A stretch of DNA of 22,070 bases from an uncultured archaeon (GCA_964583985.1 CAZOYD010000042.1:9203-31272); one strand, 5' to 3'. Counted from the first letter of the stretch, positions 12,864-22,070 are shown. Translations and numbers: made by a program. Notes: generated from the letters alone by a model not told the origin.

Positions 12864-13151
12864 TCATAGTATAAAATGTGGTTTTGGATGACCCCCATAA
12901 TTAGCACGCTTCAAGGTTAGATCTATTTCTGATATTAACCAACAAAGGATATCATAAGAAGGTGAAGTATAATAAATTTCAGCTGCTCTTTGCGAAATGA
13001 AGTTCTCATCTACCCTTTGAAAATTATTTTGAAGGTATAATTGCCGTTCTGCTAACATCCAGCATAAATCATTAAAAGGAATTCTTTTTTCAGCGAATAA
13101 ATAGGCTGCCACGCTGATTTCTTGTTTTGTATCATCATCATAATTAAACAT
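12864..13151 (-). CDS. Small protein with two tandem DUF2934-like repeats
   Basis: ISVAAYLFAEKRIPFNDLCWMLAERQL and ISQRAAEIYYTSPSYDILCWLISEIDL resemble the I-x3-AY...W-x2-AE-x2-L pattern. Confidence 0.65.
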   Translation of the reverse strand: MFNYDDDTKQEISVAAYLFAEKRIPFNDLCWMLAERQLYLQNNFQRVDENFISQRAAEIYYTSPSYDILCWLISEIDLTLKRANYGGHPKPHFIL

Positions 13152-13321: not shown

Positions 13322-13777
13322 TTAATCGGGTGTAAGCGAATCTAAATCAGAAAGATCTAAACCACTATCTAAGGTATCTGGAATATCTGCCAAGAACTCA
13401 TCCAAGATTTCCTTTAATTCGTCTCCTGAACGTTTTAATATGAGTCGAATCAAACCGATGTTAATCTCAGGGTCAGAAATCAGAGTTAATACACCTTTTG
13501 GGCCGCAACTGGAAGCGAATATTTTTCCTCCTCCGAACTCACTCGTAACTATTTCTAAATCACCAAGTTCTAAATTCTTTCCTTGCTCCTCCGATGCACA
13601 AAAAACTGCTGAAGCAATAGCCCCAATACCATCAACATCTGCGGGGAAATACGAGAATTTCGAGACGCTTGCGATAGTCAAACCAGTTCTATCGACTAAA
13701 ATTACTTTTTTAATTCCACTTTCAGATTTGATAATTTTTGATAAAATGTTATCGAATGATTTGGTATCAAGTGACAT
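13322..13777 (-). CDS. Roadblock/LC7 (MglB/LAMTOR-like) protein with acidic C-terminal tail
   Basis: GIKKVILVDRTGLTIAS, GIGAIASAVF, IVTSEFGGGKIF, INIGLIRL form the roadblock pattern. Confidence 0.92.
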   Translation of the reverse strand: MSLDTKSFDNILSKIIKSESGIKKVILVDRTGLTIASVSKFSYFPADVDGIGAIASAVFCASEEQGKNLELGDLEIVTSEFGGGKIFASSCGPKGVLTLISDPEINIGLIRLILKRSGDELKEILDEFLADIPDTLDSGLDLSDLDSLTPD

Positions 13778-13962
13778 TCTAATACACCTAAATTTGAATT
13801 TTATATATTATATTAGTATTTCATGTTTAAAACTATTATCATAAATAAAAAAATATATGTTTAAAAGTATATGTTTTTTGATAAGCCTAATCAATTTTAG
13901 CACGAGATAAAATCGAAAATTATCACTTAGGTTATTTAAAACAGTTATCAAGGATATTAAAA

Positions 13963-15177
13963 TTAAATTAGATTATTATCTTTCACGATTTGTAAATAAT
14001 GGTCCCTTTCACGTCTTAAAACTTTTATTTCTTTCTTTAAGTCAAAGATATATCCATTGATTTCTTCTTCATGTTTAACTTTGGAAGAAAGCTGTTCTTT
14101 TAAATTCTTGATTTCTACTTTAAGGGTGGTCATTGAATCAATATGCAGATTGCTTGATTGTTTGGACTTAGTAATTTCTTCCTTGAGATTTTCATTTTCT
14201 TTTTCCAAGGCTTTAATTTCGGAATGTAATCCGAGATTAATGCTCTTCAAATCCTCCATTTCCTGCAATATTTTTTCTGCTTCTTTTTCAATATTTTTGA
14301 TTTCAAGTGCTTCATTCGTTAATTGACTTATTGCTAAGTTATTTTCAGTTAATTTCTTGTCTTTTTCATTTAACTTTTCTGTTAATTTATTCACTTCAAT
14401 TAATAATTTTGAATTATTCTCGTTTAGTTCGGCCATTTGTTGGCTCCAACTTTCTAATTTAATGTACTGTTCACTGATTTCGTTCTTTAAGGAATCGATT
14501 TCTTCTTCTTTCTGAGATTTTTCAGAAGCTAAATCTGCATATTTTCTAGTTAGTTCCCTAATTTTTCCTTTCTTCTCTTCTAATAAACTTTCAAGTTCAG
14601 AATTTCTTGATGCTGAATCTTGCATTGTTTTATCATTTGTAGGATTATCTTTTTCGTCGTTTTTTATTTGAAAACTTTCTCGTTTCTTATCAAGTAAATC
14701 ATTACTTTTTTTAATTTCTCTTTCTACCAAACTCGTCTCACCTTCAATAATTTCCTCCCAATAGGGTGTTAATTCATTACTTTTCATCATTTCATAATAT
14801 TTGCCCAGGATATCATCGAAATTAAGTGCTTCTCGTTTTGGGAGTAATTCATAAGAGATACGGCGCATCATTCCTTCAATTTCTGGGGGAAGAACCTCAT
14901 CTTCTGAAAGAAAAACCACAATAGCAAAATTTGGTGTTCCAACATAGTGCCTGAAAGAAAATCCCGAATAAAAGCTCGTAACGTTAATATCACCTTCTAA
15001 AATGACTTCGAGGTAATTTGGTTCCATTTTCTTTTTAAGATGGTAGTCAGAAAGTTCTTGAAGTGATCGTTGAGAAATATTGAGGAATTCAGCCACATTA
15101 CTTGGAAATTGCTTATCAATATAAGCTTTCGATTCTTCATTAAAACCGATAATTATAATGCCTTTCAAAGTGATCAA
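13963..15177 (-). CDS. N-terminal longin/uDENN-like domain plus long C-terminal coiled coil
   Basis: The N-terminus GIIIIGFNEESKAYIDKQFP...VTSFYSG...AIVVFL resembles the uDENN/longin opening (F-D-x3-G-P-x5-P type). About 210 C-terminal residues are heptad-rich in E/K/L. Confidence 0.65.
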   Translation of the reverse strand: MITLKGIIIIGFNEESKAYIDKQFPSNVAEFLNISQRSLQELSDYHLKKKMEPNYLEVILEGDINVTSFYSGFSFRHYVGTPNFAIVVFLSEDEVLPPEIEGMMRRISYELLPKREALNFDDILGKYYEMMKSNELTPYWEEIIEGETSLVEREIKKSNDLLDKKRESFQIKNDEKDNPTNDKTMQDSASRNSELESLLEEKKGKIRELTRKYADLASEKSQKEEEIDSLKNEISEQYIKLESWSQQMAELNENNSKLLIEVNKLTEKLNEKDKKLTENNLAISQLTNEALEIKNIEKEAEKILQEMEDLKSINLGLHSEIKALEKENENLKEEITKSKQSSNLHIDSMTTLKVEIKNLKEQLSSKVKHEEEINGYIFDLKKEIKVLRRERDHYLQIVKDNNLI

Positions 15178-15278
15178 CTGATTTTTTTTAATCAGATGGA
15201 GAACTCTTAGAATTAAGTTTATTAATCGCTATATTATTATAAACTTTATATATATAATAATAAAAAACAAAGTTCTTC

Positions 15279-15647
15279 TTAAGGATTTAGATAACTACTG
15301 ATGAGTTCTCTAAATTCTTGAACTTTAATAGGTTTTGAAACGTACTGGTTAAAACCAGCTTCCATAATACGTTCCTTATCTCCTTTCATTGCAAAGGAAG
15401 TCACTGCAATGATTGGAATGGTTTTAAATTTATCCAGTTTCCTTAATTCGCTGCAAATTTCAATTCCATTCATTTCTGGTAGTTGGATGTCCAGAATCAC
15501 AATATCCGGATCTCCTGATTTTATTAATTCAAATCCTAAATCTCCTCGAGTTTCTTCAAAAAGCTCAATATCGGGAATGATTTTTAAAATTGCACGAAAT
15601 AATTTCATGTTCTTTTCATTATCTTCAATTACAAAAACTCTCTTCAT
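15279..15647 (-). CDS. Single-domain response regulator (CheY/DivK-like receiver)
   Basis: VIEDN, phosphoacceptor PDIVILDIQLPEMNG, AVTSFAMKGD, YVSKP; no output domain. Start is ATG 15647 or GTG 15656. Confidence 0.95.
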   Translation of the reverse strand: MKRVFVIEDNEKNMKLFRAILKIIPDIELFEETRGDLGFELIKSGDPDIVILDIQLPEMNGIEICSELRKLDKFKTIPIIAVTSFAMKGDKERIMEAGFNQYVSKPIKVQEFRELISSYLNP

Positions 15648-15815
15648 CTTTTTCACTTTAAATTGTTAGAAAATGCTTTTTCTATTCTAAATAATATCAA
15701 GCTATTAAAATAACCATGAGTATTTAGATATGTTTATATATATCATTTTGCATTTATTATTTAAATTTAATTCTTCACGAAAAGCACAAAATCTTAAGTA
15801 TTAAGTGTTCTGATC

Positions 15816-17135
15816 TTGGTCGTTGGTATCGTACTCTTTAGTTGGGATAAGAAGATAGGTTCAGTTGTCGATTTCAAATATCCTCAAGGCTTTGAAATCC
15901 AAGATGATTTGATTAATAAAATATACATGACGTTTGCTTATAGCGAAGATTTTGACAAGCAAGAATTGATTGAAACTAGTTATAGTAACCTAACGATCTT
16001 GTCTTACTGCGATAAAACAAGAGTACCTACAGTTGGATACGAAATTGTGAGTCTATTTTTAGAGGAAAAAGAAGCAATCAATTCATTTAGTTTCAAAAAA
16101 AAATTAATCACTTTTGGACAAGATATTTTTACAATTGATAAATCAGAGCGTAATACATATTTTGAAAATAATATTGAGGGGTTCTTCAAATCTACTTCCG
16201 CTCAAAAAATCCTATTACTTGGTAGAGCAGGTACAGGAAAAACAACCATTAAAAAAATAATTTTTGAGGGATTTGATCCCAAAGAATTACTGGTTAATCC
16301 TTTAGATCCCACTCGTGGATTAAGTCCGTCGGTTTATTCTTGGCTAGATTTAAAAATCGGACTGTTTGATTCTTCTGGTCAGGAATTAGAAACTTTATTA
16401 AATAATAAAGATGAATATGACCTGGCATTTTATAATACCGATGCGATAATATATGTTTTTGATTATCCTACTTGGATTAGAAATCCTACCGAAATCGTTT
16501 CTGAAATTCAAAAAATTCAAAATATAATTAAAGAAGAATCCTATTCCGCTAGAATTATAATTTTCATTCATAAAATTGATTTAATCAATAATGAAAATCG
16601 TAAAGATATACTCGGAGAGATTACCAACATCTTAAAAGAAAAATTACCTTTTTCAATTTTTTATACTAGTATTCATCCGGAATTTATTTTTAGTACCTAC
16701 AATGCTTTTTATGAAATTTTAGCAAACTATTCAAAAGAGACTTTTCAACTAAAAAAAATATTGGATGATTTCATCAATGATTCTCCGAAATCAATGTTTT
16801 TCATAACAAACCAAAATAATAGCATAGTATCACAATCTACATCCAACGATTTTAATTTCGGTAATATTAACCATGCTCATAAATTAATTGCTCAAATTAC
16901 TCAAACATTTGAGGACATGTCAAACAATAGTAAGATTGAACATCTCATAATTTCTGGACAAAACGATTTAAACCTTATTTTGAATAATCTTAATTTAAAT
17001 CAATTTGAAATTAAGAATTTGATTTGTATTTCTGAAACTCTTAGCGCAAATAAATTAATTTGGATGATAGGACAAATAAGATCAAAAATAAAGAATTTAT
17101 TTTATTTTAACATAAAGGAAAAGAGTTCAAATTGA
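15816..17135 (+). CDS. Multidomain Rag/Gtr-like small GTPase: uDENN/longin-like N-domain + GTPase + roadblock/longin-like C-domain
   Basis: G1 KILLLGRAGTGKTT, G2 PTRG, G3 DSSGQ, G4 HKID, G5 TSI (HKxD and TSI are Rag-type). N-terminus GIVLFSWDKKIGSVVDFKYP; C-terminus LKKILDDF..MFFITNQNNSIVS. Confidence 0.85.
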   Translation: MVVGIVLFSWDKKIGSVVDFKYPQGFEIQDDLINKIYMTFAYSEDFDKQELIETSYSNLTILSYCDKTRVPTVGYEIVSLFLEEKEAINSFSFKKKLITFGQDIFTIDKSERNTYFENNIEGFFKSTSAQKILLLGRAGTGKTTIKKIIFEGFDPKELLVNPLDPTRGLSPSVYSWLDLKIGLFDSSGQELETLLNNKDEYDLAFYNTDAIIYVFDYPTWIRNPTEIVSEIQKIQNIIKEESYSARIIIFIHKIDLINNENRKDILGEITNILKEKLPFSIFYTSIHPEFIFSTYNAFYEILANYSKETFQLKKILDDFINDSPKSMFFITNQNNSIVSQSTSNDFNFGNINHAHKLIAQITQTFEDMSNNSKIEHLIISGQNDLNLILNNLNLNQFEIKNLICISETLSANKLIWMIGQIRSKIKNLFYFNIKEKSSN

Positions 17136-18646
17136 GTAAAAAGATAATTTTTGTGGGACCTTCAGGTGCAGGTAAAACAACTTTAAAGAAGCTCTTTTTT
17201 GAAGGTGAAAATTCAACTAAATTGTTAGAGTATGCGTTAGAGCCAACATATGGAGAAGAATCTCTCATAATAAAATTACCAGGACTAGAAGAAGATATTG
17301 GAATCTTTGATTTGGCAGGACAAGAAAATGAAAGATGGTTAAGCTCTGAAGCGAATTCGATTTTTTATGAAACAAGAATCATCATTGTAGTTATCGACGT
17401 TTCAGCAAATTTGGAAAGTACTATCGATTTTATTTCGCGAATAATTGAGATCCGTAATCAGTTAACTCCTGAAACAAAAATTTATGTTTTACTTCATAAA
17501 ATCGATTTGATTGGCGAGAAACGAATTAGAGACATCAGTGAAGGGATTAAGCATAAGTTCTCTTCTGAAAAATTGCTAAAATTTTTATTCACCAGCTTAA
17601 AAAAGAAATATCTCACGCAAACATTGTCTTACTTCATTGAAATTATGAAGGCTTGTCTTGTTGATGAGACATCTGAAGAAGCTTTAATGTTTAATGTTAT
17701 AGATGAATCTATGAAATTAATACATTTAATTGATGAAAGTATCATTCTACCAAGAGAAAATTTGCATGAAAAATTAAATCGTCCTGAAAATTTAGTTAAT
17801 TTTTTAATCAAGAGTCTTGTTTTGAAAGGTCATCTCAAGATAGAGACTAACAACAACCAAGAATTAATAAGTTTAACAGAAAAAGGAAGAGAATATTTTA
17901 AGGATGTTATAAAAACTTTCTCCAAAGCCAGCATAAATATAATTCAATTAAAAATGGAAGAAATTATTCCCCCTTTTATTGGTGCTTTTATAGCTGACAA
18001 GGATGGACGTACTTTATTAAAAATTGAAATATTTGATGAGGCCCTCGAAAAGTTTCTTATAACCGAGGTTTCAAATGATCCTAACTTTATTCCAGTAGAT
18101 TTAGATTTGATCCCAATGTTTATTAGTGCACTAGAGAAATTTTCGCTTGAACTGAATATTCAAGATTTGTCTGGTTTTGGACTAAAAGGAAGTAATTTAG
18201 GAATGCACATATTAACATATGATAATTTTACTGTTACCTTTTTTATGAATCCTAATGTAAATATAGCCCCTGTTCTCAATAAAGTTGATAATTTTTTTAA
18301 AAATTTATTTGAAGAATTTAAAGATGATTTCGAATATAGTTTAAGAACTGGTCAAATCGACGGATTATTCCCTTTAATGAAATTAGGGCAGAATTGGCTT
18401 AAAGAGTTGAATGAAACATATAATGACATGATTATTAAATTAGAAATTTATGATTTAGAAAATGCTCAACAATTATATAATGATCTTGATAATTTATTCG
18501 ATAGAGTCAATCTTAACTATTCTCTTACACTTGAAAGAATCAAAAAATTGAAAGTTAATCTAATGAAGGCCATTTTGGAAAATGATTTTGAGGAGTTAAA
18601 AAAAATAGCACAAATCACGCAAGATTTAAGTGCCAAGTTCTTATAG
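17132..18646 (+). CDS. Multidomain Rag/Gtr-like small GTPase: GTPase + winged HTH + longin/roadblock-like domain + helical tail
   Basis: G1 GPSGAGKTT, G2 PTYG, G3 DLAGQ, G4 HKID, G5 TSL. wHTH LIKSLVLKGHL..ISLTEKGREY. Longin-like FIADKDGRTLL..DLIPMFISALEKFSLEL. The TTG start overlaps the upstream TGA (TTGA). Confidence 0.85.
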   Translation: MSKKIIFVGPSGAGKTTLKKLFFEGENSTKLLEYALEPTYGEESLIIKLPGLEEDIGIFDLAGQENERWLSSEANSIFYETRIIIVVIDVSANLESTIDFISRIIEIRNQLTPETKIYVLLHKIDLIGEKRIRDISEGIKHKFSSEKLLKFLFTSLKKKYLTQTLSYFIEIMKACLVDETSEEALMFNVIDESMKLIHLIDESIILPRENLHEKLNRPENLVNFLIKSLVLKGHLKIETNNNQELISLTEKGREYFKDVIKTFSKASINIIQLKMEEIIPPFIGAFIADKDGRTLLKIEIFDEALEKFLITEVSNDPNFIPVDLDLIPMFISALEKFSLELNIQDLSGFGLKGSNLGMHILTYDNFTVTFFMNPNVNIAPVLNKVDNFFKNLFEEFKDDFEYSLRTGQIDGLFPLMKLGQNWLKELNETYNDMIIKLEIYDLENAQQLYNDLDNLFDRVNLNYSLTLERIKKLKVNLMKAILENDFEELKKIAQITQDLSAKFL

Positions 18647-18663
18647 TTCCCAAAATATTCATG

Positions 18664-20796
18664 CTACATTTTTTCTAATTTTTTAGGAATATTAAATGTA
18701 AAGGTTGAGCCAACACCTAATAAACTAGTAAAATTAATTTCTCCACCATGTAATTCGATTAGTCTTTTTGTTAGAGACAAGCCTAAACCTGTACCTTGTA
18801 CAGATCGAACATATGCGGAGTCAACTCTTTTAAATTCTTTAAATATAAGTGGAAAATCTTTTTTATCAATCCCGATCCCAGTGTCTACTATCTTAAAAAT
18901 CCAATTATAATAATTTTGTGTAATCTTCAATCTGACTGTTCCATCAATAGTGAATTTAATTGCATTACTCAGAAGATTCAGTAAAATTTCTTTAAATCTA
19001 ATCGGATCTGCATATATCTCAAGTTCTTCTTCTATCCCCTTTATTTTTAAATTAATTTTTTTTTGGTCATATAATGGTCGTAAACTTGATTTAATTTGTT
19101 CCAGTAATGAATTCAATGAAAATTTCTGAATATTCAATGTCAATTGTCCGGACTCAATTTTGGTAATGTTTAGGATATGTTTAATCATTTCAAATTGATG
19201 TTCAGCTGAGCTTTTAATATCCACTATAAATTCCTTTTGTTCATCGCTTAAGTCTCCATAAACACCTTCTAAAAGTAAATCAGTAAATCCTATTATCGCG
19301 TTTAAAGGAGTGCGTAATTCATGTGACATCGTAGCCATAAATTCGGTTTTAAATTGAGAAGATTTAACAATCTGGTCCAAGTATAATTTTTGCTGTGCAA
19401 GAGCATCGTGTAGTTCTTTAGTTCTTATTTCAACTTTTTCTTCGATTTCTTCTTTAAACTTCGCTTCGAAAAGCTCATTTCTTTTTTTTTCTGTAATATC
19501 TTGAAAGATTAACTGGATTATACTAATGCCATATTGTTTAATTAAAGATGCTTGGAGTTTTACCCAAATTTGTTTATTTCCTTGATGATTGATTTGAACT
19601 TCAATTGGTTTTGGAAATTTATTATTAAAGGATGCTTGAAATATTCTTTTAAAATAAGTTCTTATCTCTAAAGGAAAAAGATTATTAAGTTCATCTATAG
19701 TCTTTCCTTTCAAAGATTCAATACCATATCCTAAGATTTTACTTGTTATTGAATTACAATCCAGTATTTCTCCCTTTAAATTGATTAATATTATAGCATT
19801 AGGGGAATTATCGAATAAATTCTTATATCTCTCCTCAACTAACTTTCTCTCAGTTATATCTCTTGATACAATGAGCCATTTTTGCTTATTATCCTTATCA
19901 ATAAAAGATTGACCCCGGCATTCAAACCATAACCATGCTCCATTTTTGTGCTGGAATCTAAGTTCTAAAAAATTATAATTTTCATTAGATCTTGTTTTAT
20001 ATACTTGAGTAAATTGTTCAACTTCATCTTTATGTATGAAGTCTAAACAGGAGTAACCTATAAATTCCTTACTTTGATACCCTAGTAGCTTGATTAGAGT
20101 ATGCTCATTAATATATTCAAATTTATAATTTGAGTTTATTATAATAACCAAATCATTGATATTTTCCAAGATTAATCTATAGCTTTCTTCTGACTCTTTT
20201 ATTAATACTTCAAATTTTTCTCGCTCAAGTGCATTTCCTATAATTTGAGATGTGATGCGGAGCAGTGAGAAATCTTTCTCTCTCCATTCTCTTGTAAAAT
20301 TTACTGTGTCAAAGCCTAAAAAACCAAATAAACTAGATTTTACGTAAATTGGAAAAATAAGCACTGATTTTATATTCTGTAGTTCAAAGAATTCTTTTGT
20401 TGCACCTGCATTTTCGGGAAGATTATCAATATTTGAGGTATGGAAGATTTTTCCATTCATAAGTTGATCGATTAACCATGGAAATCTACTTAATTCTAAA
20501 TTTTGAAGCACATGTACTCGTGGACTTATATTTTCTTCATTCCACTCGTAAGTATTGCTGACATATTTTGCATCTTTACTAATTGTGAATATATAACTAC
20601 GACTCACACCACTAAAAATTGCGATATCTCTTAATGTTGCATTGATCACTTCATCAATGTTAAAATTTCCGAGAAATCTTGATGAAATCGTAGATATTAC
20701 CGTTTCAAGATTCAACCAATGTTCCAACAATTCGAGTGTTCCCTTCGTAATTTCCTCATGATCGCGTGAAAGATCTTCCTTATTATCCAACATCAT
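18664..20796 (-). CDS. Cytoplasmic sensor histidine kinase, GAF-PAS-PAS-HisKA-HATPase
   Basis: GAF (NTYEW..IKSVLIFPI..FGFLGFD), two PAS/PAC units ending in RDITE/QDITE, H-box MSHELRTPL, N-box NLLSNAIKF, DTGIG, GTGLGL; no TM segment. Confidence 0.95.
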   Translation of the reverse strand: MMLDNKEDLSRDHEEITKGTLELLEHWLNLETVISTISSRFLGNFNIDEVINATLRDIAIFSGVSRSYIFTISKDAKYVSNTYEWNEENISPRVHVLQNLELSRFPWLIDQLMNGKIFHTSNIDNLPENAGATKEFFELQNIKSVLIFPIYVKSSLFGFLGFDTVNFTREWREKDFSLLRITSQIIGNALEREKFEVLIKESEESYRLILENINDLVIIINSNYKFEYINEHTLIKLLGYQSKEFIGYSCLDFIHKDEVEQFTQVYKTRSNENYNFLELRFQHKNGAWLWFECRGQSFIDKDNKQKWLIVSRDITERKLVEERYKNLFDNSPNAIILINLKGEILDCNSITSKILGYGIESLKGKTIDELNNLFPLEIRTYFKRIFQASFNNKFPKPIEVQINHQGNKQIWVKLQASLIKQYGISIIQLIFQDITEKKRNELFEAKFKEEIEEKVEIRTKELHDALAQQKLYLDQIVKSSQFKTEFMATMSHELRTPLNAIIGFTDLLLEGVYGDLSDEQKEFIVDIKSSAEHQFEMIKHILNITKIESGQLTLNIQKFSLNSLLEQIKSSLRPLYDQKKINLKIKGIEEELEIYADPIRFKEILLNLLSNAIKFTIDGTVRLKITQNYYNWIFKIVDTGIGIDKKDFPLIFKEFKRVDSAYVRSVQGTGLGLSLTKRLIELHGGEINFTSLLGVGSTFTFNIPKKLEKM
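19264..19326. repeat. 63-bp near-identical repeat shared by the two kinase H-boxes (second copy 21447-21509)
   Basis: 61 of 63 nt are identical by manual alignment. Confidence 0.85.
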
Positions 20797-20810
20797 AAAT
20801 TCATTAATAT

Positions 20811-22070
20811 TTATAAAATTTTTAAAAAATGTTCTACTTCAAACGATTCTTTACGTATAAGTTCATTAGGTATTCTAATTTGGAATGTCGTACCTTCTCC
20901 CTGTTTACTATTAAATGAGATACTCCCACCATGAAGTTCCACAATTCTCTTAGTTAACGCTAAACCTAAACCAGCTCCAGGTGTCGCATCTACAAGTGGT
21001 GTTTTAACTCTTTTGAAATCCTTGAAAATGAAACCAAAATTCTCTTCTGCTATCCCAATACCTGAATCCTTGATAAATAATTCCCATCCTTCTTTATCGG
21101 AAGAAAATTCTATGATAATATATCCTTTTTCAGTGAATTTAATTGCATTAGTCAGAATATTGTAAATTATATCTTTGAGTTTTAAGGGATCTCCTTTTAC
21201 TATTTGTTTCTTTTTAATTCCTCTCATATCTACTACTAATTTTTTTTCATCAATCGCTGATCTCAAAGTTGATAAAATATTATTTATAAAATCATATAGG
21301 CGTATTTCTTCGTAGTTCAATGAAATTTGACCAGATTCTATTTTAGAAATATCTAATATCTGTGAGATCATGTTAAATTGATGTTCAGCTGAACTTTTAA
21401 TATCCTTGATAAATTCTAATTGCTCATTGCTTAAACTTCCATATATACCTTCTAAAAGTAAATCAGTAAATCCTATAATGGCGTTTAAAGGAGTGCGTAA
21501 TTCATGTGATATAGTCGCCAAAAATTCTGTTTTAAAATGCGAACTTTTGATAATTTGATCGAGATATACTTTCTGCTTTTCAAGGGCTTCAGTTAGTTGA
21601 TTCGTCCGTATTTCCACTTCCTCTTCGAGCTTCTCGCTAAAACTTCTCCTTAAAGCCTCACTTTTCTTTCTCTCTGATACGTCTCTGACAAATCCTTTAA
21701 ATCCTATAACTTTATTATTATCATTCAACTTTAAATAAACAGAAGATTCTAAATATATAATTTCTCCATTGGTTTTTCTCTGTGGATATTCTATTATTTT
21801 AAATTTCTTCTTAGTTCTCAACAATTCACTAGATTCATTAAATATATATTGTTTTGTATCTTCATCACATAATTCACTATAATTTTTCTTTAAAAGTTCT
21901 TCTCTTGTAAAACCGGTAATTTCTGCTAATGCTCCGTTAAAAAAAGTAAAGTTTCCGTCTAAATCAACCTCGAAATATCCTTCTTTAATAGTCTCAAGAA
22001 TGCTCCTATATTTTTCTTCAGATTTTTTTAACTGTTCTTGAATTAACTTTATATCCGTTATATCTCTTCC
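20811..22070 (-). CDS. PAS-domain sensor histidine kinase (5' end beyond window)
   Basis: The frame is open to the window edge (GRDITDIKLIQEQLKKSEEKYRSILETIKEGYFEVDLDGNF...), so the track start at 21824 is internal. ISHELRTPL, NILTNAIKF, DSGIG and GAGLGL are present. Confidence 0.95.
   Translation of the reverse strand, partial: GRDITDIKLIQEQLKKSEEKYRSILETIKEGYFEVDLDGNFTFFNGALAEITGFTREELLKKNYSELCDEDTKQYIFNESSELLRTKKKFKIIEYPQRKTNGEIIYLESSVYLKLNDNNKVIGFKGFVRDVSERKKSEALRRSFSEKLEEEVEIRTNQLTEALEKQKVYLDQIIKSSHFKTEFLATISHELRTPLNAIIGFTDLLLEGIYGSLSNEQLEFIKDIKSSAEHQFNMISQILDISKIESGQISLNYEEIRLYDFINNILSTLRSAIDEKKLVVDMRGIKKKQIVKGDPLKLKDIIYNILTNAIKFTEKGYIIIEFSSDKEGWELFIKDSGIGIAEENFGFIFKDFKRVKTPLVDATPGAGLGLALTKRIVELHGGSISFNSKQGEGTTFQIRIPNELIRKESFEVEHFLKIL

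Follow-up and report, generated by a model that had tools for sequence, protein, structure and literature searches.

In eukaryotes, Rag GTPases working with roadblock and longin regulators constitute a nutrient switch. The locus described here, a run of seven signalling genes from an uncultured Promethearchaeota (Loki-type Asgard) archaeon, raises the question of whether a switch of this kind is encoded in one piece together with a two-component phosphorelay. The window, i.e. the whole stretch of 22,070 nucleotides that was analysed (GCA_964583985.1, CAZOYD010000042.1:9203-31272), is the end of contig C42 in an assembly of 3.8 Mb and 138 contigs. The seven genes lie at positions 13322-22070 and encode a roadblock protein, a longin-coiled-coil protein of 404 amino acids (CC404), a single-domain receiver, two Rag-like GTPases (A and B) and two histidine kinases (HK1 and HK2). 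A first-pass annotation, made from the sequence alone, had read them all as a single proto-Rag/Ragulator-like switch placed under phosphorelay control. According to the comparison with related genomes, one half of this interpretation stands, namely the link between the kinase/receiver genes and the GTPases, and the other half, which drew the roadblock protein and CC404 into the same system, is not supported.

Judged by gene neighbourhood and co-occurrence, the receiver (15279-15656, minus strand), GTPase A (15816-17135, plus), GTPase B (17132-18646, plus), HK1 (18664-20796, minus) and HK2 (20811-22070, minus) are a conserved Lokiarchaeial module that is kept and lost together. The scan for linkage used one genome per species and covered 68 loci. 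Among the GTPase B relatives of at least 35% identity, including that of MK-D1, a receiver gene is found within 2.5 kb in 31 of 37 cases and a kinase gene within 5 kb in 34 of 37. Five of the six relatives without a receiver lie on contigs too short to show one. The 13 remoter paralogues share no more than 33% identity, and some of them are second copies carried by MK-D1, Lokiarchaeum ossiferum and Harpocratesius; only one of the 13 has a receiver nearby and two have a kinase. The synteny of kinase/receiver and GTPase genes across Asgard genomes had been chosen beforehand as the test that could refute the proposed link; the link proved to be kept in more than 30 species-level genomes, down to about 35-40% GTPase B identity.

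The arrangement around this link is flexible. Orthologous loci of the same genus have the order HK2-HK1-B-A-receiver-CC404-roadblock down to 49% GTPase B identity, and at least three gene orders retain the association. In the first, the receiver is divergent from A-B and the kinases are convergent; in the second, the kinases are located upstream on the same strand; in the third, seen in MK-D1, the genes follow one another as kinase, receiver, receiver, B, receiver, A-like and kinase. HK1 orthologues adjoin GTPase B in the relatives. Across the families of the order, the receiver-GTPase A-GTPase B triplet is kept tight, with a spacer of about 100-250 bp and a stop/start overlap, while its surroundings vary.

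Orthologues of the receiver, of GTPase A and of LD222, a protein of about 220 amino acids (222 here) encoded further along in the relatives, occur in an identical set of 12 out of 30 genomes of the genus, and the 24 genomes searched for GTPase B show the same distribution of it. Several of the 18 genomes that lack receiver, GTPase A and LD222 have a completeness of 98-100%. On the CC404 gene tree, the presence and absence of the module requires about four changes, two of which are forced by well-supported branches; on this tree, therefore, the module was acquired or dropped in one piece on more than one occasion. Chance co-location as the cause of the adjacency of receiver and kinase genes to the GTPases was rejected, because the linkage holds in most of the relatives scanned, is absent near the distant paralogues and is matched by exact co-occurrence in the genus.

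The two remaining genes, encoding the roadblock/LC7 protein (13322-13777, minus strand) and CC404 (13963-15177, minus), are distributed differently. They were found in 22 and 21 of the 30 genomes, respectively, versus 12 for the GTPase pair, and at least eight genomes carry both of them and lack the pair. In MK-D1, the roadblock, CC404 and module loci are unlinked, at 1.79, 1.33 and 2.08 Mb, and in Harpocratesius the roadblock orthologue is linked neither to CC404 nor to the module. In G016, G018 and G023, which belong to the genus, the module is on other contigs and CC404 and roadblock are together on one contig, 1-3 kb apart. At ten loci where the module is not beside CC404, the order is X1-X2-X3-CC404-roadblock-SDR, where X1-X3 are the first three conserved genes of contig C41 of our own genome; X3 directly adjoins CC404 in seven of the ten, and a lone receiver-domain gene stands between them in the other three. 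From this distribution, roadblock and CC404 are backbone genes flanking the module rather than dedicated parts of it, and the proposal that they serve as Ragulator/GATOR-like partners dedicated to the GTPase pair is not upheld.

Between the roadblock and SDR genes, a 95-amino-acid open reading frame (ORF) without Pfam match (12864-13151, minus strand) was also observed; at least three further genomes of the genus, G022, G008 and G023, have it in this position too. Where the module is absent or located elsewhere, a protein with a helical N-terminus and a receiver domain is encoded beside CC404 (L106 10241-10804, L107 7251-8000 and L113 8050-8391). It is related to two proteins of 285-288 amino acids at the far end of the signalling genes described below, and may represent what the insertion site originally contained.

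Beyond HK2, the relatives carry, in this order, a 293-amino-acid Rag-like gene, LD222 and a 490-amino-acid Rag/Arf-like GTPase, often with receiver-domain proteins thereafter. LD222 has no Pfam match and is a homologue of a 210-amino-acid MK-D1 protein. In our own genome, the 293-amino-acid Rag-like gene, LD222, the 490-amino-acid GTPase and two x-REC proteins were found at the end of contig C41 (L117 13691-16478), the Rag-like gene being cut by the contig end. When the two contigs are read together (C41 8.5-33 kb and window 15.3-22.07 kb), about 35 kb of kinases, receivers and GTPases are placed between X3 and CC404, a position that in other genomes is empty or holds a single receiver-domain gene. 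Positions 13.3-22.07 kb of the window would thus be the junction between the edge of a variable signalling island and the backbone pair. HK2 is incomplete because the window ends with contig C42: a C-terminal fragment of 419 amino acids is present and the 5' part lies beyond the contig end. The orthologous contig of the closest relative, G022, likewise breaks inside HK2. The catalytic cores of HK1 and HK2 are very similar, and this may be the reason why assemblers stop there.

Within the window, ORF calls and Pfam agree with the first-pass annotation on the positions and order of the seven genes. Of the seven assignments, five were borne out directly by Pfam. The divergent region shared by the receiver and GTPase A, put at about 160 bp, measures 159 bp (15657-15815); GTPase B and HK1 converge with a gap of 17 bp, as had been described; and, also as described, no metabolic gene was found between the seven signalling genes. 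The stop codon of GTPase A overlaps the start of GTPase B (ATTGA). No transmembrane segment was found in any of the seven proteins.

Both GTPases belong to the Rag family by sequence. Gtr1_RagA (PF04670, cut-off 22 bits) is the best Pfam family for GTPase A, with 86 bits (3e-24), and for GTPase B, with 59 bits (6e-16). HKxD in G4 and TS(I/L/W) in G5 are the Rag-type signature motifs. GTPase A displays GRAGTGKT, DSSGQ, HKID and TSI, GTPase B displays GPSGAGKT, DLAGQ, HKID and TSL, and the Rag-type G4/G5 residues H, K, D, T and S are invariant in the alignments of both proteins.

GTPase A (439 amino acids) is composed of a longin domain (residues 1-123), a Rag-type G domain (128-303) and a C-terminal roadblock domain (307-432). 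Its AlphaFold2 (AF2) model has three domains and a predicted local distance difference test score (pLDDT) of 84.8. In this model, residues 1-123 show the longin-type topology beta-beta-alpha-beta-beta-beta-alpha-alpha and residues 307-432 the roadblock topology alpha-beta-beta-alpha-beta-beta-beta-alpha. A phmmer search of the PDB returned RagA/Gtr1 as the best relatives, yeast Gtr1 being aligned over residues 125-405, which include the G domain and the roadblock. The top Foldseek matches of the model were Gtr1, RagA and RagC, over about 315 columns with E values around 1e-18, and two solved Lokiarchaeota Rag-like GTPases appeared lower in the list.

GTPase B (504 amino acids) has a different build. 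Its Rag-type G domain (residues 1-165) is followed by a winged helix of MarR-like type (about 190-270), and the C-terminal region that comes after it (265-504) is conserved. Its best PDB match is again RagA/Gtr1, and residues 165-285, used as a profile, matched MarR-family structures at 2e-5. Its named relatives are nearly all from Promethearchaeota. No roadblock domain could be demonstrated in GTPase B with Pfam, the PDB or profiles, and profile-profile comparison of the C-terminal region with the roadblock protein, the roadblock and longin domains of GTPase A and the CC404 head was uninformative, with probabilities below 5%. Rag GTPases are obligate heterodimers of one RagA/B-type and one RagC/D-type subunit. 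GTPases A and B each score higher against RagA/Gtr1 than against RagC/Gtr2; therefore, the description as a Rag-like pair holds for the family of both members, and does not extend to a RagA/RagC-type pair by descent.

The receiver (125 amino acids; Pfam Response_reg 5e-25) consists of a single domain and retains all residues of the phosphorylation pocket: E11/D12, the phospho-acceptor D56 (in DIQLP), T86 and K108. Caulobacter DivK is its best solved relative (4e-28), far ahead of all others. Both kinases contain HisKA and HATPase_c domains, with the H-box HELRTP at residue 492 of HK1 and at residue 189 of the HK2 fragment. HK1 is a soluble protein of 710 amino acids with the Pfam architecture GAF-PAS-PAS-HisKA-HATPase; the HK2 fragment shows PAS-HisKA-HATPase, and its orthologues range from 559 to 973 amino acids. 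Two kinases had been announced at this locus, of which HK1 is whole and HK2 is not.

The roadblock protein (151 amino acids) is MglB-like and carries an acidic C-terminal tail. Its assignment to Robl_LC7 (PF03259) was confirmed at 5e-10, and it also passes the cut-off of the LAMTOR3-type family MAPKK1_Int (28.7 bits, cut-off 25). Its best solved relatives are MK-D1 Roadblock3 (9jue) and MglB. Conservation is very high: identity amounts to 91-100% across the genus and is still 77%, acidic tail included, in MK-D1 and Harpocratesius, which belong to other families of the order, unlike that of the neighbouring GTPase B, which falls to 49% within the same genus. This suggests that the roadblock protein might act as a hub with many partners.

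The head of CC404 takes up roughly residues 1-135 and is followed by a charged linker and then by a coiled coil some 220 residues long. In Pfam, only coiled-coil matches were obtained, which are noise. The AF2 model of the head (pLDDT about 80-90) has the topology beta-beta-alpha-beta-beta-beta-alpha-alpha. VIA-align superposed it over about 130 residues on the Loki longin 8yqg_B (Z 11.7), on the SEA-complex chain 8adl_S (Z 11.0) and on the GATOR1-complex chain 8fw5_B (Z 10.6), SEA/GATOR1 chains were also the top Foldseek matches, and DENN and TRAPP longins scored lower (DENND1A, Z 9.1). On the evidence of this model, the head is a longin fold closest to the NPRL2/Npr2 type. The first-pass description of the head as longin/uDENN is thus retained for longin and dropped for uDENN: neither CC404 nor GTPase A matched the Pfam family uDENN (PF03456) at E values up to 0.1. 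Comparison of the head with the N-terminal domain of GTPase A by hhalign gave a weak probability of 31-40%, which is suggestive only. The search for relatives of CC404 returned 133 proteins; the named ones are mostly from Promethearchaeota/Lokiarchaeota and none bears a functional name. Residues 68-83 form a near-invariant loop, SFYSGFSFRHYVGxPN, between strands 4 and 5 of the head, modelled with low confidence. Arg76, in SGFSFRHYVG, is itself near-invariant, with Lys in one orthologue, and the loop is a candidate functional element, possibly an arginine finger such as the catalytic one of the longin-domain GTPase-activating proteins FLCN, NPRL2 and SMCR8. In eukaryotes, SEA/GATOR1 complexes switch off Rag GTPases.

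How could these parts work together? We consider it somewhat better than an even bet that the module is a functional kinase-GTPase circuit from which the roadblock protein and CC404 are left out. Its parts would be the two soluble PAS/GAF kinases, the DivK-like receiver and the translationally coupled GTPases A and B, together with, beyond the contig break, the 293-amino-acid Rag-like GTPase, LD222 and the 490-amino-acid Rag/Arf-like GTPase. The kinases would sense cytoplasmic signals through their PAS/GAF domains and then phosphorylate the receiver. Having no output domain, the receiver would act by phospho-dependent protein contact, in the manner of DivK or RomR. Its target could be the GTPase pair, the longin/roadblock domains built into it, or LD222, and the contact would set the nucleotide state of the pair. 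Output would then pass through the winged helix or the C-terminal domain of GTPase B and through other GTPases of the island. Within this scheme, direct contact between the receiver and the GTPases is a tentative element that we hold to be less probable than its opposite, and the wiring from kinases to GTPases is a proposal drawn from synteny only.

Several observations weigh against this circuit. Support for it comes only from gene neighbourhood and co-occurrence, among genomes that are related and non-independent, and gains and losses were counted on the CC404 gene tree, which can only approximate a species tree. There is no overlap between the ends of contigs C42 and C41, and neither the N-terminus of HK2 nor the C-terminus of the truncated GTPase was found in the assembly; the join between the two contigs is for this reason a synteny inference. 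Residues 265-504 of GTPase B, one of the candidate output regions, gave no match with the PDB as a profile or with Pfam when 16 family members were searched. Finally, roadblock/CC404 is adjacent to the module in six of the nine genomes that have both with assembled context, so that a functional tie of the module to the backbone pair may exist.

In the rival reading that follows the first-pass annotation, all seven genes make up one proto-Rag/Ragulator system, with the roadblock protein as a dedicated scaffold and CC404 as the GTPase-activating protein (GAP) or guanine nucleotide exchange factor (GEF) of the GTPase pair, the whole being controlled by the phosphorelay. The seven genes are contiguous here and in six other genomes (G022, G005, G020, G007, G003 and G042), the roadblock protein passes the LAMTOR3 cut-off, the CC404 head resembles most closely the longin-bearing chains of SEA/GATOR1, and three genomes have a different receiver-domain gene beside CC404. 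Against this must be set the wider occurrence of the two backbone genes, at least eight genomes having both without the pair, the separation of the three MK-D1 loci by hundreds of kb, and the placement of the module on other contigs in G016, G018 and G023. The SDR-roadblock-CC404 backbone is independent of the module, the 77-100% identity of the roadblock protein across the order suits a general role with many partners, and the locus contains one roadblock gene only and no LAMTOR1-like anchor. The Ragulator-like reading is therefore weak, and we regard a seven-gene system as unlikely. At the other extreme, the genes might be co-located without direct coupling, the island being a hot spot where signalling genes of separate pathways share regulation or mobility. 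The size and variability of the island speak for this, since it reaches about 35 kb here and is reduced to nothing or to one receiver-domain gene elsewhere, and many of its further kinases and receivers have likely pairings of their own. With 38 Rag-family matches, about 20 kinases and about 20 receivers in the genome, some neighbouring is to be expected. A mere hot spot sits poorly, however, with a receiver-A-B triplet that stays tight across families of the order as its surroundings change, with more distant GTPase B paralogues that lack such neighbours and with the exact co-occurrence with LD222 in the genus; we consider it distinctly unlikely.

Signal flow could also run in the reverse direction, as in the conservons of actinobacteria: the GTPases, depending on their nucleotide state, would bind and gate the kinases, and the receiver would be a downstream output or a phosphate sink. 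DivK acts back on kinases, and a DivK-like receiver would fit into such a scheme; so would the convergence of GTPase B on HK1 and the fact that kinases flank the pair in nearly all relatives. A precedent is the actinobacterial complex in which a histidine kinase and a small GTPase are joined by a roadblock protein and a GEF-like protein, the contacts among them being dependent on both catalytic activities (PMC4316618, PMC13621833). However, no homologue of DUF742/CvnC was found here apart from a single weak match (E 0.029) in one GTPase B relative, the GTPases are Rag-like and not of MglA group 2, and conservons have no receiver, whereas here the receiver is the divergent and most tightly linked neighbour of the pair. 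Reversed flow is thus improbable in our view, and the forward kinase-GTPase circuit is the reading that we prefer.

The genes of the module may also be subject to local control through the spacer between the receiver and GTPase A. When 12 orthologous loci are compared, conservation within the spacer is confined to a 47-nt block (15723-15769), whose flanks have diverged. This block holds an inverted repeat, GATAT-N8-ATATC, centred on the TATA-like TTTATATA, and a second TATA-like element, TTTAAAT, which precedes GTPase A by some 60 nt. The 21-mer core of the block occurs once in the genome, even when up to 3 mismatches are allowed. The palindrome of the window was sought in the spacers of more distant clades and is not kept there; these have other conserved motifs, and in L060, L061 and L063 the motif AAATAGGT(T)TAAAT takes the place of the palindrome, twice in tandem in one genome. 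The block likely represents two core promoters and a locus-specific operator, as far as can be judged from its conservation.

The 13-mer TTATTTAAATTTA recurs upstream of several Rag-like genes; its 11 copies genome-wide are close to the rough expectation for an AT-rich 13-mer, and it resembles a generic TATA-type element. Several other Rag-like GTPase genes of our genome are preceded, at a distance of 45-90 nt, by elements resembling TATTTAAATTTA, and one such element lies about 250 nt upstream of a receiver-kinase gene (C63 near 11020, C84 near 2952, C28 near 15180 and C1 near 115358); they probably correspond to the local TATA-box consensus. A bolder idea, which we hold to be a long shot, is that GTPase B is a GTP-gated winged-helix protein that binds GATAT-N8-ATATC, so that a Rag-like switch controlled by a phosphorelay would act directly on transcription. 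To our knowledge, direct transcription output is not known for any GTPase of the Ras superfamily. If true, this would give an idea of the readout that Rag-type switches had before mTOR.

The locus can be compared with several kinds of known systems. With eukaryotic Rag/Gtr, it shares two GTPases that pass Gtr1_RagA and carry HKxD and TS(I/L), a GTPase A in which the G domain and the C-terminal roadblock superpose on Gtr1/RagA, the pairing of the two GTPase genes and, as regards Ragulator/EGO, GATOR1 and FLCN-FNIP, roadblock and NPRL2-type longin folds next door. It differs in several respects. Both members are RagA/Gtr1-like rather than RagC/Gtr2-like, so that the pair would stem from a separate duplication; GTPase A has an additional N-terminal longin, and GTPase B has a winged helix and its own C-terminus with no recognised roadblock. 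Input here is two-component, as opposed to the amino-acid sensors and mTORC1 there. Unlike in Ragulator, there is neither a membrane anchor nor LAMTOR1 here, and the inheritance of the roadblock and longin genes does not follow that of the pair. Loki Rag-like and longin proteins of solved structure (PDB 8yl2, 8zla and 8yqg) are among the fold matches obtained in this study.

Actinobacterial conservons (CvnA-D/Mfp) consist of four genes, among them one for an MglB-type roadblock and one for a DUF742 protein. Their kinase, roadblock protein and small GTPase are encoded as one signalling unit in which no DNA-binding response regulator takes part (PMC4316618, PMC13621833), and the same kinds of genes are encoded together here, likewise without a DNA-binding response regulator. 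The conservon GTPase belongs to MglA group 2, in contrast to the Rag-like GTPases of the window; the conservon kinase is membrane-bound (LPxR tail) and lacks a receiver partner. The two kinases here are soluble, and no partner is linked more tightly than the receiver. Moreover, CvnC/DUF742 is missing here and the roadblock gene lies outside the co-inherited unit. In Myxococcus, MglA and its roadblock GAP MglB are tied to the receiver-domain and long coiled-coil proteins RomR, FrzS and AglZ (PMC4316618, PMC9481161), which act on MglA by protein contact (PMC4316618). The roadblock protein of the window matches MglB by sequence, but the GTPases beside it are multidomain Rag-like proteins instead of MglA, the DivK-like receiver stands alone without a fused coiled coil, and no motility genes are nearby.

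In Asgard archaea, part of this picture has been drawn before. The longin-GTPase-roadblock layout and an operonic Rag-like pair have been described in MK-D1, where GTPase genes lie mostly outside operons with regulators (Tran et al. 2024, PMC10933270); the terms 'histidine kinase' and 'response regulator' do not occur in that paper. NPRL2-like longin domains fused to two-component domains have been reported in Asgard, with the proposal that two-component systems, together with eukaryote-like regulators, lie at the heart of growth control there (Liu et al. 2020, bioRxiv 10.1101/2020.10.19.343400). Neither study places kinases or receivers beside a Rag-like pair. In the literature searched, no description of the receiver-A-B-kinases cassette and its co-inheritance was found, nor a paper combining Lokiarchaeota, histidine kinase, GTPase and roadblock, nor one on the solved 'LokiRag' structures. 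The general idea of two-component input to eukaryote-like regulators is already published, and the specific cassette would belong to the small-GTPase systems wired to two-component signalling.

What the window adds is that the roadblock and longin-coiled-coil neighbours are a separate and more widely conserved unit. Such Ragulator-like neighbours, being conserved flanks of an insertion hot spot, call for caution when function is read from the gene order of one genome. Asgard archaea hold dozens of Rag relatives whose partners, according to published opinion, cannot be read from gene order (Tran et al. 2024). By being kept and lost together with one Rag-like pair, the receiver/kinase set provides concrete candidate partners and, as orthologous genes are present in the cultured MK-D1, makes two-component input to GTPase switches testable in vitro.

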